34,484 nucleotides of DNA from a virus, in UHGV virus genome UHGV-0211321. One strand, given 5' to 3'. The position numbers and the translations under genes are program-made. Shown piece after piece: positions 1,619 to 34,350 of this stretch. The notes under the pieces are model-generated. The model made no database searches. It was not told the origin of the DNA and saw nothing but the letters and a program-made list of their open reading frames with translations. The stretch's first letter is position 1. Each line of letters begins with the position of its first letter.

Positions 1619-2824
1619 ATGGCAAAAAAAGAAATTGATAAACGAATTAAAAAGCACTTAACAAAAAAAGGCGAAGAAAAATATCAGTTTAGTCTGTACT
1701 TAGGAGTTGATCCTCTAACAGGAAAAAAAAGAAAAACAACGAGACGAGGTTTTAGTACGCCATTAGCCGCTGAGAGAGCTTTAAAAAGATTGGAGGCAGA
1801 TATACAGGAAAAAGGACTGCAAGCTTCTACAGCTCAAAAGAGCAAGAAATTCGAATATGTTTACGGCTTATGGTTTGAAAATTATAAAAAGACAGTTAAA
1901 GAAAGCACTTGGTCCTCCACCAAACAAATTTTTGACACACACATCTTAAAAGTGTTTGGAGATAAGTTCATTGACAAAATAGACGTTTTTTTCTGTCAAG
2001 AAGCAGTAAACACTTGGTCCGATAGCCATCCTAAAATTTTTAAGAAAATAAAAAATTACACATCTAATGTTTTTGATTACGCTGCTTCTTTACAAATTAT
2101 AACTAGCAATCCTATGAAATTAGTTTCTATTCCACGTGGAGAAGCTCTAGACATCGAAGATAAAAATATCGAATTTTATACTAAAGAAGAATTAATCGAA
2201 TTTCTAGAAGCAATAAGAAACGATGATGATGAAAGATATTTATTCTTTTCCCTATTGGCTTTTACAGGTATAAGAAAAGGAGAAGCTTTTGCACTGACCT
2301 GGTCGGATATTGATTTTAAGAGCAAAACACTCAATATTAATAAAACTGTAACAAGAGGTTATCAAGGGAGATTGATCGTAAATACTCCTAAATCAAAATC
2401 TGGAAAAAGAAAAATTTATCTGGACAATGATTTGATCAGTTTATTGAGAAAGTATTATACAAAAAACAAAACGATCGTTACAATCCAAAGCGAAAACTTA
2501 ATTTTTCACCATGATGGTCTTCTCTATAACCCTACAGTTTCACGTTCGTGGCTTAATGTCATATATAAGCATCATCCAGAATTGACTAAAAGAATCACTA
2601 CTCATGGTTTTCGACATACTCATGCCTCTCTCCTTTTTGAATCAGGAGCTTCTTTAAAAGATGTTCAGGAACGTTTAGGGCATGCAGACATTCAAACTAC
2701 TTCAAATATTTACACTCATGTAACTGAAACTCAAAACAAAAAAGTCATCAATAATTTTGTAGCATTTATGAAGAATAGTACTCAGGGGGAGTCAAAAGGG
2801 GAGTCAAAAAACATTTTAGGCTAA
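1619..2824 (+). CDS. int: tyrosine site-specific integrase (phage integrase family)
   Basis: Track ORF 1511-2824 begins with GTG. The ATG at 1619 (MAKKEIDKR...) has an SD (aaaggaaag). C-terminal catalytic region 'HGFRHTHASLLFESGASLKDVQERLGHADIQTTSNIYTHV' (H-x-x-R ... Y). Its 3' end overlaps the first 22-bp att repeat. Confidence 0.9.
   Translation: MAKKEIDKRIKKHLTKKGEEKYQFSLYLGVDPLTGKKRKTTRRGFSTPLAAERALKRLEADIQEKGLQASTAQKSKKFEYVYGLWFENYKKTVKESTWSSTKQIFDTHILKVFGDKFIDKIDVFFCQEAVNTWSDSHPKIFKKIKNYTSNVFDYAASLQIITSNPMKLVSIPRGEALDIEDKNIEFYTKEELIEFLEAIRNDDDERYLFFSLLAFTGIRKGEAFALTWSDIDFKSKTLNINKTVTRGYQGRLIVNTPKSKSGKRKIYLDNDLISLLRKYYTKNKTIVTIQSENLIFHHDGLLYNPTVSRSWLNVIYKHHPELTKRITTHGFRHTHASLLFESGASLKDVQERLGHADIQTTSNIYTHVTETQNKKVINNFVAFMKNSTQGESKGESKNILG
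2785..2806. repeat. 22-bp direct repeat copy 1 (GGGGGAGTCAAAAGGGGAGTCA), itself a tandem of the 12-mer GGGGAGTCAAAA; candidate Int arm-type site or att core
   Basis: Identical 22-mer recurs at 3028-3049. Copy 1 lies in the last codons of int and encodes ...GESKGESK.... Confidence 0.7.
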
Positions 2825-2831
2825 ATTACAA

Positions 2832-2860
2832 CAAAAAAAGACACGATCGAAATCGCGTCT
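2832..2860 (-). terminator. rho-independent terminator for leftward (late/lysis operon) transcription
   Basis: Hairpin agacacgat-cgaa-atcgcgtct (2839-2860) with the A-run 2833-2839 on + reading as a U-tract on the minus-strand RNA. There is no T-tract after it on +, so it is oriented for minus-strand transcripts arriving from the lysin/att side. Confidence 0.6.
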
Positions 2861-2879
2861 AATCGTTGATATATAAGGA

Positions 2880-2938
2880 AGGTACAGGATTTGAACCTGC
2901 GCGCCGGTATTAGCCGGTTCGCCGGATTTCGAGAATAG
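2880..2938 (-). other. GC-rich tRNA-like 3' fragment (T-arm GCAGG-TTCAAAT-CCTGT plus 3' acceptor strand) on the minus strand; candidate attP core homologous to the 3' end of a host tRNA gene
   Basis: Minus-strand read ...ccggcgcgcaggTTCAAATcctgtaccttcc: canonical T-loop TTCAAAT (T-Psi-C-R-A-N-Y) with a 5-bp stem and G53/C61, followed by 7 nt of acceptor. No complementary 5' acceptor strand (GGAAGGT) exists nearby, so this is not a complete tRNA gene. It is a GC-rich island in AT-rich DNA, lying between convergent int and lysin. Confidence 0.45.
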
Positions 2939-3027
2939 GGTTTAAGGCTGATTTTAAGTGTTTTTCGCTTATTATCAGCTTTTTATAATCTAAAAAAACA
3001 ACTTTTAGAGACATCCATATACTGCTT

Positions 3028-3049
3028 GGGGGAGTCAAAAGGGGAGTCA
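3028..3049. repeat. 22-bp direct repeat copy 2 (GGGGGAGTCAAAAGGGGAGTCA)
   Basis: Perfect identity to 2785-2806, 243 bp away, immediately 3' of the lysin stop. Confidence 0.7.
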
Positions 3050-3052
3050 TTT

Positions 3053-3829
3053 TTATAGCTTATTCGTATTTAATCGACGCTGTAATTCTTTCACTGCATT
3101 AGATACAGGACTAATCACACCGTCTTGTGTTGTGCCTAAATATCTTTGTAATGCTTTTATTGTATTTTGGCCACACAATCCGTCTTGAGCAATGCCTAAG
3201 AAACCTTGTAAAGCTCTAATGACATTCGACCCAGTTAATGTATTGTCAAATTGAGCAGCGTAAATATTTTGATTAAATGTTTGTTTGAACTGATGACTGA
3301 TCACACCATCTTTGCCAGCTGTGTCAAAGTATTCTTGTAAACGTCTAGCTGTTGCATTGCCAAACTGACCATCAAGAGCTAATTGGATCATCTGTGGTTT
3401 ATTGTCTGTATTAGCAGTTCCTCCATCGAGAATACGGTAGAAATTATGTTGCAGTTTTGTACTCATGTATGCATCATTAGTATCTACTGCGATCCCGTTA
3501 TGCGTATAAGAGCAATGGATAAATGAGCTGTTACTTAGAAAAATACCTGTATGCCCAGCTGATCCATTTGAACCACCAGGAGTACCTGAAATAAAGATAT
3601 CCCCTCTTTGTACTTCTGATCGACTAATCTTTTTCAGTTTCGTTCCAACCATACCGAACAACGTTTCAGTATTTCCCATTGATCCAGAAGGTAGAAAGCC
3701 TCCAGCAATCATTGAGAAGAAAACTGCAGAGCTGCAATCGTAAGAATTAGGTCCAAGCCGATGGGTCATTGAATACGTCACTTTACCTAGTCGATCCTGC
3801 ATCCATTTAATCATTGACTCTTTACTCAT
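3053..3829 (-). CDS. endolysin: N-terminal NlpC/P60-CHAP-type cysteine peptidase (Amidase_5-like) plus C-terminal PG_binding_1-like repeats
   Basis: 258 aa. Cys/His pair 'YDCSSAVFF ... GHTGIFL'. C-terminal repeats 'DGQFGNATARRLQEYF', 'IRALQGFLGIAQDGLCGQNTIKALQRYLG...DGVISPVSNAVKELQRRL' fit the peptidoglycan-binding LxxLGxxxDGxxGxxT...L pattern. Last gene before attP, after the holin. Confidence 0.85.
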   Translation of the reverse strand: MSKESMIKWMQDRLGKVTYSMTHRLGPNSYDCSSAVFFSMIAGGFLPSGSMGNTETLFGMVGTKLKKISRSEVQRGDIFISGTPGGSNGSAGHTGIFLSNSSFIHCSYTHNGIAVDTNDAYMSTKLQHNFYRILDGGTANTDNKPQMIQLALDGQFGNATARRLQEYFDTAGKDGVISHQFKQTFNQNIYAAQFDNTLTGSNVIRALQGFLGIAQDGLCGQNTIKALQRYLGTTQDGVISPVSNAVKELQRRLNTNKL

Positions 3830-22393: not shown

Positions 22394-22492
22394 CCCCCTT
22401 TGTTTTTTGAAAAATTTGACCTAACGATGCGCGTGACTCCCCGCTACCCTATCTCCCCACGCGAAAAAATTTTTAAAATGGATAGGGGGGCT
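22394..22492. other. candidate cos / packaging-recognition region between the HNH endonuclease and terS
   Basis: 99-bp non-coding, relatively GC-rich stretch. Poly-C (22394-22399) and poly-G (22485-22491) tracts. Inverted repeats cgcgtg...cacgcg and ccctatc...gataggg. Confidence 0.3.
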
Positions 22493-33016: not shown

Positions 33017-33319
33017 TTAAACTTTGTATTTAGCCATCAGTTCATCGATGTCTTTTTTGTCATACCTTAAAAAGCCATCTATACGAATTTCTTTTAAACC
33101 GTGAGCTACTAACTTCTCAAAACCCTGATCATTTACACCTCCCACATACTTTCTAGCTTCGATTTTTTTCAAATATCGTGTTTCTGAAAGATTCTTTTTT
33201 GAAAGCTGATTAAGTGCGTCCTTCACAACTTCAACAATTGCAATTCTCAAACGAGTCAGAAACTCTTCGCTTAGAATATTCATGACTTGCCTCCTATCGA
33301 ATTTTATTTTTCTTTCCAA
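33017..33319 (-). CDS. excisionase-family HTH DNA-binding protein
   Basis: 100 aa, 'RYLKKIEARKYVGGVNDQGFEKLVAHGLKEIRIDGFLRYDKKDIDELM' fits the excisionase/MerR-like HTH_17 pattern. Located in the early operon, not next to int. Confidence 0.45.
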   Translation of the reverse strand: MERKIKFDRRQVMNILSEEFLTRLRIAIVEVVKDALNQLSKKNLSETRYLKKIEARKYVGGVNDQGFEKLVAHGLKEIRIDGFLRYDKKDIDELMAKYKV

Positions 33320-34101: not shown

Positions 34102-34350
34102 TTATTTTATTAAAAATGAATCGTTATGAAGTTTATATCGTATAAACTCGTCTTTGCTTCCAAAAAAAATATTTGCTGTTGGAAAATGGTATATTTCTGG
34201 TATTAATTGCACATATTTTTGCTTCATTTTATTCGGATCTTGTTCCCAATTTGCTAAGGTTTGATGGTGAACATCAAAGAGTTTTGCTGCTTCTTTTAAA
34301 GAATATCCCATCATAACTCTAGCTGCTTCCAAAGTAATTTGTAATTCCAT
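34102..34350 (-). CDS. cro: Cro-like XRE-family HTH regulator
   Basis: 82 aa 'GYSLKEAAKLFDVHHQTLANWE'. First gene of the leftward early operon, divergent from the CI gene across the operator region. Confidence 0.7.
   Translation of the reverse strand: MELQITLEAARVMMGYSLKEAAKLFDVHHQTLANWEQDPNKMKQKYVQLIPEIYHFPTANIFFGSKDEFIRYKLHNDSFLIK

Follow-up and report, generated by a model that had tools for sequence, protein, structure and literature searches.

Among the closest described systems to the locus analysed here is the phage attachment site (attP) of the Lactobacillus delbrueckii phage mv4. This attP is 215 bp long and has two adjacent 11-bp direct repeats at either end; gel shifts demonstrated that only such pairs stabilise the integrase (Int) on the core (bioRxiv 10.1101/2023.11.06.565760). 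In the mv4 record (U15564), the first repeat overlaps the stop codon of int. The locus in question belongs to the virus genome UHGV-0211321, a stretch of 34,484 nucleotides (nt) referred to below as the window, on the whole of which all coordinates are counted, and consists of the region 2785-3049, on which an integrase gene and an endolysin (lysin) gene converge. The two phages have homologous integrases, the same target gene, tRNA-Ser(CGA), an attP of 215-265 bp placed directly after int with a terminator 3' of the tRNA piece, and, at both extremities of this attP, a pair of adjacent 11-12-bp direct repeats. They differ in host and in arm motif, and also in the position of strand exchange, which in mv4 takes place at the 3' end of tRNA-Ser within an identity core of about 17 bp, whereas in the window the identity covers 58 nt and the exchange falls in the anticodon stem/loop. 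In addition, the tRNA piece and int share a strand in mv4 and occupy opposite strands in the window, and the tRNA is rebuilt by the int-distal arm in mv4 and by the int-proximal arm in the window phage.

The attP of lambda is comparable in having a heterobivalent tyrosine integrase, arm sites on both arms that are distinct from the core, a length of about 240-265 bp and arms that part into the prophage junctions attL and attR. Unlike the window, lambda has five arm sites, P1, P2 and P'1-P'3 around a COC' core, in mixed arrangement, together with IHF, Xis and Fis sites, and its bacterial attachment site (attB) lies between genes; the window has two symmetric direct tandem pairs and a tRNA gene as target, and host-factor sites were not identified. 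With respect to the target, the counterpart is the anticodon-loop (A) subsite class of elements integrating into tRNA genes, as defined in the Islander database (PMC4383910). Like the window, these elements carry the 3' part of the tRNA from the anticodon loop onwards and restore the gene, leave the displaced fragment at their far end without changing its orientation and form tandem arrays, and no essential difference was found between the class and the window. No literature was found on an Enterococcus prophage with attB in tRNA-Ser. The window site is an ordinary attP, a previously uncharacterised Enterococcus example of a known architecture, and the understanding of site-specific recombination is unchanged by this result.

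Proposed organization of the attP

With a probability of roughly 0.85, we interpret 2785-3049 as an entire attP, by which a temperate siphovirus of Enterococcus inserts into tRNA-Ser(CGA), with Int predicted to bind both repeat pairs. Catalytic residues, an arm domain, repeats on both arms and hybrid junctions, that is, the sequence-level features of the attP of a heterobivalent integrase, were each found. In the proposed mechanism, the catalytic and core-binding domains of a heterobivalent Int would act on the core, at about 2919-2940 in the anticodon stem/loop of the tRNA copy, while its N-terminal domain would bind both of the outer GGGGAGTCAAAA pairs, bridging arms and core into an intasome as in mv4. 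At integration, phage positions 2876-2933 would replace the 3' two-thirds of the host tRNA-Ser, and the terminator at 2832-2860 would end the rebuilt tRNA gene and keep transcription out of int. The resident tRNA 3' part would then come to lie about 34 kb away, beside the int-distal arm, the int-distal repeat and the lysin gene.

The window as an excised phage genome

The gene survey of the window revealed a complete temperate siphovirus genome, with no host genes and no module in a second copy. The plus strand encodes a cI-like repressor (helix-turn-helix, HTH, plus Peptidase_S24; 31-870) and int, and the minus strand carries all other real-looking genes of at least 100 codons, beginning with the endolysin gene and ending, at the far end of the gene set, with a cro-like gene (34102-34350). 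Because this is a whole phage genome without host genes, the simplest reading is that the window is the excised or circular phage, in agreement with a preliminary description of the sequence, which had proposed an excised, circular or virion form. Alternatively, the window could be a prophage circularised by computation or the junction between two prophages in tandem, given that tandem arrays are common at tRNA-Ser in related loci (L003, L005, L013, L022, L029) and yield attP-like junctions. Yet only one full gene set runs from the repressor to the cro-like gene, host genes and duplicate modules are lacking, and the 34.5 kb of the window equal the length of one prophage, making this origin unlikely.

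Integrase and terminal repeats

The int gene (1619-2824, plus strand) encodes a tyrosine integrase of 401 amino acids with N-terminal arm-binding, SAM-like core-binding and catalytic domains; the open reading frame (ORF) spans 1511-2824, with 1619 as its likely start. Pfam matches include Arm-DNA-bind_4 (PF14657) on residues 21-64 (37.3 bits against a curated cutoff of 22.3), Phage_int_SAM_3 and Phage_integrase (PF00589, 98.4 bits). In an alignment with the integrase of a second type (Int2, see below), the catalytic residues R219, H329, R332, H355 and Y365 were all invariant. Identity amounts to 99.5% with the integrase annotated in OY731397 and to 33.5% with mv4 Int, the latter over 88% of the query (tblastn, E = 2e-38). 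A sequence search of PDB with Int recovered catalytic-domain relatives only, without a solved relative of the arm domain.

Exactly two copies of the 22-mer GGGGGAGTCAAAAGGGGAGTCA occur in the window, at 2785-2806 and 3028-3049 on the plus strand. No further copy was found in the 34,484 nt, even at 3 mismatches, and the 22-mer had 0 occurrences in 100 dinucleotide-preserving shuffles of the window. The preliminary description had reported these two perfect copies, none of which is expected by chance, as well as their makeup as tandems of a 12-mer, and it was right on both counts: the units are GGGGAGTCAAAA, with the second unit of the distal copy deviating in its last 3 nt. The int-proximal pair (R1, P arm; 2785-2809, plus strand) comprises 12-nt units at 2786-2797 and 2798-2809 and coincides with int codons 390-397, and the int-distal pair (R2, P' arm; 3028-3049, plus strand) has units at 3029-3040 and 3041-3049; both are regarded as putative arm-type sites. 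The pairs have a 12-bp period and the same plus orientation, and bear no resemblance to the core CGCCGGA/TTTCGAG. When single arm units in either orientation were sought at 2700-3120, only weak additional matches (2-4 mismatches) inside int were obtained.

As previously noted, the first copy is embedded in the last codons of int, where it encodes GESKGESK (residues 390-397). Since the reading frames of homologous integrases end at their own repeats or ahead of them, this peptide repeat is probably a read-through by-product of the DNA repeat. R2 lies in no supported coding gene, and 3 nt separate its end from the lysin stop codon (3053-3055). A 46-codon ORF on the minus strand (2910-3050), which starts 2 nt past the lysin stop with an ATG contributed by the end of R2 and enters the tRNA piece, is without homology support and probably spurious.

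Sequences of attP and junction loci were gathered from IMG/VR, genomes at one per species, and metagenomes, the probe being either the 22-mer or an anchor that extends over the core and the int-proximal arm. Probe scans recovered loci of Enterococcus durans, Enterococcus sp. ZJ1622 and many gut contigs. Those sharing the integrase type of the window (type 1) are all at least 97% alike, and many were gathered with the 22-mer itself as probe. Among the loci cited here by L number, L001 is OY731397, L002 is OR847155, L030 is Enterococcus sp. ZJ1622, L085 and L091 belong to contig k87-727561, and L008 and L019 to contig 3300045988_123684. The only close GenBank relative is the metagenomic OY731397. 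Its attP flanks are essentially identical to those of the window and its int-distal arm (2934-3049) is 100% identical, the differences being confined to about 2812-2932, where the terminator, the tRNA piece and the spacer of the int-proximal arm are located. The distance from R1 to R2 is constant at 243 nt in 8 attP-form contigs (window, L001, L003, L004, L009, L080, L086, L089). Three variants of R1 were found in near-identical integrases, each keeping GAGTC in both units.

Arm sites across integrase lineages

The integrases of relatives (24-61% identity) are each followed, directly after the int stop, by a tandem 10-12-mer of their own, and relatives in attP form have a second repeat pair 170-245 bp off. 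In seven lineages the repeat starts at or just past the int stop, its sequence differing by lineage while its position is fixed. The phages with the second integrase type (Int2, type 2; 41% identity; L005, L026, L027) have two copies of ACGTATTCAAAG after the stop and ACGTAGTCAAAAACGTATTTAAA 218 nt away across the core, with ACGTATTCAAA as arm motif; in their attP, ACGTATTCAAAGACGTATTCAAA starts 6 nt past the stop and AAACGTAGTCAAAAACGTATTTAAA lies at this distance beyond a terminator and a 21-nt tRNA core. The tandem repeat is GGGGTACTAAAAGGGGTACTC in L043 (61% identity) and ACGTAGTCAGTAACGTAGTCAAT in L066 (37%), and two copies of AAAGTGTGGCAT occur in L068 (36%). In L074 (24%), TGGCATTAT occurs twice on either side of a tRNA fragment, and L070 (26%) has TGTCAGT pairs on both sides; in both loci the second pair lies beyond the core. 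Type 2 resembles the window in its whole layout of int, tandem 12-mers, terminator, tRNA piece, spacer, tandem 12-mers and lysin. It differs in sharing only about 21 nt with the tRNA (TATAAGGAAGGTACAGGATTT), at the T-loop or acceptor subsite.

This recurrence suggests a possible rule for integrases with Arm-DNA-bind_4, namely that a tandem 10-12-mer starts at the int stop and recurs 170-245 bp away, which could aid the automatic location of attP and arm sites. Since Int has an arm-binding domain, the repeat tracks the integrase lineage and the mv4 homologue has the same two-pair layout, the assignment of the 22-mers as putative arm-type Int binding sites is strongly supported.

A different protein, such as an excisionase, a host architectural protein or a repressor, might bind the 22-mers of a genuine attP in place of the Int arm domain. 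The Xis sites of lambda are likewise adjacent direct repeats, no excisionase was identified with confidence in the window, and an exact 9-mer of the motif occurs once elsewhere, at 22434-22442. On the other hand, the arm-binding domain of Int needs a target, the repeat changes with the integrase lineage while keeping its place at the int stop, the equivalent mv4 pairs have been shown to act through Int, and Xis sites are normally on one arm only. Binding by another protein thus seems quite unlikely, and Int remains the preferred ligand of both pairs.

The tRNA piece and its terminator

The minus strand of 2876-2933 corresponds to tRNA-Ser(CGA) from anticodon-loop position 32 to the discriminator, and includes the 3' strand of the anticodon stem, the long variable arm, the T arm and the 3' strand of the acceptor. 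The preliminary description had recognised a tRNA-derived T-arm and acceptor at 2880-2938; the origin is correct and the span is not, as the segment occupies 2876-2933 and reaches the anticodon loop. The host tRNA that this predicted is the Enterococcus tRNA-Ser(CGA), which matches all 58 nt. The tRNA-Ser(cga) genes that ARAGORN called in L002, L019, L030 and L027 do not differ from the piece over this part. By megablast, 2858-2933 is 97% identical to wastewater contigs labelled 'UNVERIFIED_ORG Listeria phage', including L002 with its full tRNA-Ser(cga). Neither ARAGORN on the window nor Rfam on 2700-3150 called a tRNA, which reflects the fragmentary nature of the piece; what Rfam matched in 2700-3150 was the terminator, to small RNAs and at chance level. 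Past 2933 the phage reads AATAGGG and the gene TCCGGTG, so that the identity block starts exactly at tRNA position 32. The following stretch, from 2934 to 3027, is the phage-specific spacer of the int-distal arm between the core and R2, which joins the displaced tRNA fragment in lysogens.

On the other side, the spacer 3' of the tRNA end (2858-2875, minus strand; TCTAATCGTTGATAT) is still chromosome-like, with an extra 2-nt TA in the phage. An int 3' remnant stands ahead of the matching chromosomal flank and marks this flank as the fossil of an int-proximal arm from an earlier phage. Such descent accounts for the 18 nt over which phage and host are identical past the tRNA end. Positions 1-157 of L002, downstream of its tRNA, were also considered as plain host DNA, which was rejected on account of the decayed int 3' end that precedes.

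Read in the tRNA sense, the tRNA piece is immediately followed by an intrinsic terminator (2832-2860, minus strand), whose hairpin has a 9-pair stem (2860-2839) and a loop of 4 nt and is succeeded by a T run. In mv4 a terminator was found by scan right after the tRNA piece, and type-2 attP sites have a hairpin and T run at the equivalent place, which were read directly, their loop being too long for the terminator scan. Given this hairpin and T run 3' of the tRNA piece in all three, the conserved role of the terminator is most likely to end the rebuilt tRNA transcript and to shield int. The terminator lies about 190 nt past the lysin gene in the circular form, and can also end late transcription there. 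Thus the minus-strand terminator of the preliminary description is real, with the closing of the late operon, the role assigned to it there, probably an additional one. A promoter-like match on the minus strand (2978-2951; 9 of 12) was within chance expectation and was given no weight.

Lysogen junctions and the crossover site

Lysogens retain the two repeats at opposite ends of a 34-38 kb prophage. The order at int-side junctions is int, R1, terminator, full tRNA-Ser and host DNA (L019, L030, L081, L087, L088, L091), and that at lysin-side junctions is flank, tRNA 3' fragment, AATAGGG plus 95 nt, R2 and prophage (L016, L020, L029, L085). ARAGORN called the regenerated tRNA gene at int-side junctions, and the displaced fragments at lysin-side ends are in the same orientation. 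A full tRNA-Ser without an adjacent intact prophage is present in L002, L083, L084 and L092, of which L092 alone was directly verified as unoccupied. The separation of the 22-mers to opposite prophage ends bears out the earlier proposal that Int and lysin converge on an intact attP. The lysogen junctions also place recombination in the tRNA piece and not in the 22-mers, a point singled out beforehand as one on which that proposal might fail.

The tRNA 3' part occurs as several alleles (at least 4), with compensatory changes in the T-stem and variable arm. Both junctions of one prophage were recovered in contig k87-727561, where the lysin-side fragment is allele B (L085) and, on the int side, the 5' half of the tRNA continues into allele A (L091). 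Locus L092, an unoccupied site of the same species, has allele B; it is 98.2% identical to L085 1-5336, ending exactly at TTCGAG, and 97.8% identical to L091 7222-9325. Because allele B has moved to the lysin side and allele A joins the 5' half, the resident tRNA 3' part is displaced and the part carried by the phage is installed on integration. The same comparison, with the last A/B difference at 2918, confines the crossover to 2919-2933, to the left of 2934, in the 3' strand of the anticodon stem and the loop. We predict that the 7-bp overlap coincides with the anticodon loop itself (2927-2933, TTTCGAG) and that the core half-sites lie at 2920-2926 and 2934-2940, as derived from the identity boundary and the anticodon-loop subsite class of PMC4383910.

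A crossover at the tRNA 3' end would have precedent, since the homologues mv4 Int and Int2 use that subsite, and contig 3300045988_123684 has allele A in an attP-like copy (L008) and allele B at the int-side junction (L019). It predicts that the host allele is kept at the int-side tRNA, and the comparison of k87-727561 with L092 shows the opposite. In addition, L019 carries allele B, yet its flank is 98.8% identical to that of L002, whose site is allele A, and phage-host identity begins exactly at anticodon-loop position 32. The 3'-end crossover suggested by L008 and L019 was rejected after the k87-727561 comparison and is regarded as very unlikely. A resident arm with allele A, whether fossil or tandem prophage, better accounts for the start of L008.

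It is scarcely credible that the 22-mers are a structural by-product, either a target-site duplication around a 221-bp tRNA-fragment cassette or a duplicated int 3' end: as perfect direct repeats they do bracket a discrete segment, and about 2812-2932 is the sole difference between window and OY731397, but in lysogens the copies stand at opposite ends of the prophage with recombination taking place between them, unrelated repeats hold the same two positions in other integrase lineages and mv4, and the variable segment is explained by different tRNA alleles on different phages.

Within the overlap predicted for an anticodon-loop crossover, OY731397 departs from the window by reading TTTTGAG at about 3640 (window 2930) in place of TTTCGAG, which turns the anticodon from CGA to CAA in the tRNA sense. 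Another allele-B attP, L086, has the normal sequence at this place. The C-to-T change is a private mutation or a sequencing error, and integration of a phage bearing it would be expected to be impaired.

Several observations weigh against the interpretation of 2785-3049 as an attP bound by Int at both ends. Conservation of R2 is statistically light among type-1 sequences so alike and so often found through the 22-mer probe, and R1 is also under coding constraint. The right half-site AATAGGG is almost without symmetry to the left half-site CGCCGGA. The tRNA piece is on the strand opposite to int, which in mv4 is the same strand, and the arm-to-core geometry departs from that of the characterised model. 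Finally, no excisionase was found with confidence in the window, the only match being the generic phrog_668 'HTH DNA binding protein' (E = 3.5e-12). It corresponds to an HTH protein of 100 amino acids encoded in the early region (33017-33319, minus strand), a weak candidate for the excisionase or directionality factor. The small ORFs that lie between the repressor gene and int carry no functional assignment.

Possible integration history of the target gene, and implications

Loci with a full tRNA-Ser also preserve traces of older insertions. A decayed int 3' end adjoins the full tRNA-Ser in L016 (about 600-915), L020 (about 770-1081) and, about 110 nt left of the anchor, in L083, L084 and L092, and is comparable to window 2760-2875; the remnant has a terminator and one arm unit only, either GGGGGAATCAAAA or AGAGGAAATCAAAA. 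Since full tRNA-Ser genes without an adjacent intact prophage carry these fossils of the int-proximal arm, it appears somewhat probable that the 3' two-thirds of the Enterococcus tRNA-Ser(CGA) have repeatedly been overwritten by phages, the 'native' gene being a chimera with a 3' part from a deleted prophage. On this reading, the tRNA 3'-part alleles, at least 4 in number, travel with the int-proximal phage arm. Should overwriting have taken place, phages would spread tRNA alleles between Enterococcus species.

The attP/attB/Int module is hereby defined for uncharacterised temperate phages of Enterococcus (faecium group), which helps to mark prophage ends and provides a possible basis for integration vectors. 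Many IMG/VR proviruses end at the int stop, 18 nt past R1, and lose the arm downstream of R1, the terminator and the regenerated tRNA.

Neighbouring genes and other loci

The endolysin gene (3053-3829, minus strand), the last late gene, converges on attP and encodes an Amidase_5 / NlpC-P60 domain with PG_binding_1 repeats; OY731397 has it annotated as endolysin. Direct repeats with a 60-nt period (window 3120-3347) occur in the 3' half of the gene and correspond to repeated PG_binding_1-like cell-wall-binding modules.

Tandem arrays at tRNA-Ser were observed in L005 (7360-7700), L013 (1170-1450), L022 (reverse strand), L029 (6400-6700) and L003. In these arrays, a phage with the second integrase type sits in the displaced tRNA fragment of a type-1 prophage. 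Type 2 can insert there because it shares only about 21 nt with the tRNA and uses its 3' end alone. In Enterococcus sp. ZJ1622, the type-1 prophage is bordered on its left by the remnant of an arm belonging to a third integrase type (GGAGTACTAAAAGGGGTACTC).

In place of the lysin gene of the window, several related prophages have a tRNA-Met(CAT) about 40 nt past R2: L003 (5825-5898), L006 (210-283), L013 (1486-1559), L017, L020 (1294-1367), L022 and L031. In these prophages, about 28 nt after R2 are still like the last lysin codons. In L005 the tRNA-Met breaks off in the T loop, where unrelated DNA takes over, as though another element had used it as its target. An IS3-family element with two overlapping transposase ORFs lies between tRNA-Met and the amidase lysin in L016 (1408-2756) and L005 (8211-9559).

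The records OR847155 (L002) and OR849225, labelled 'UNVERIFIED_ORG Listeria phage LM 4-11-1 / 4-14-1', contain an Enterococcus chromosomal tRNA-Ser and its flanks, the latter being 98.8% identical to Enterococcus-type metagenome contigs. Both records look like bacterial contamination and not phage.

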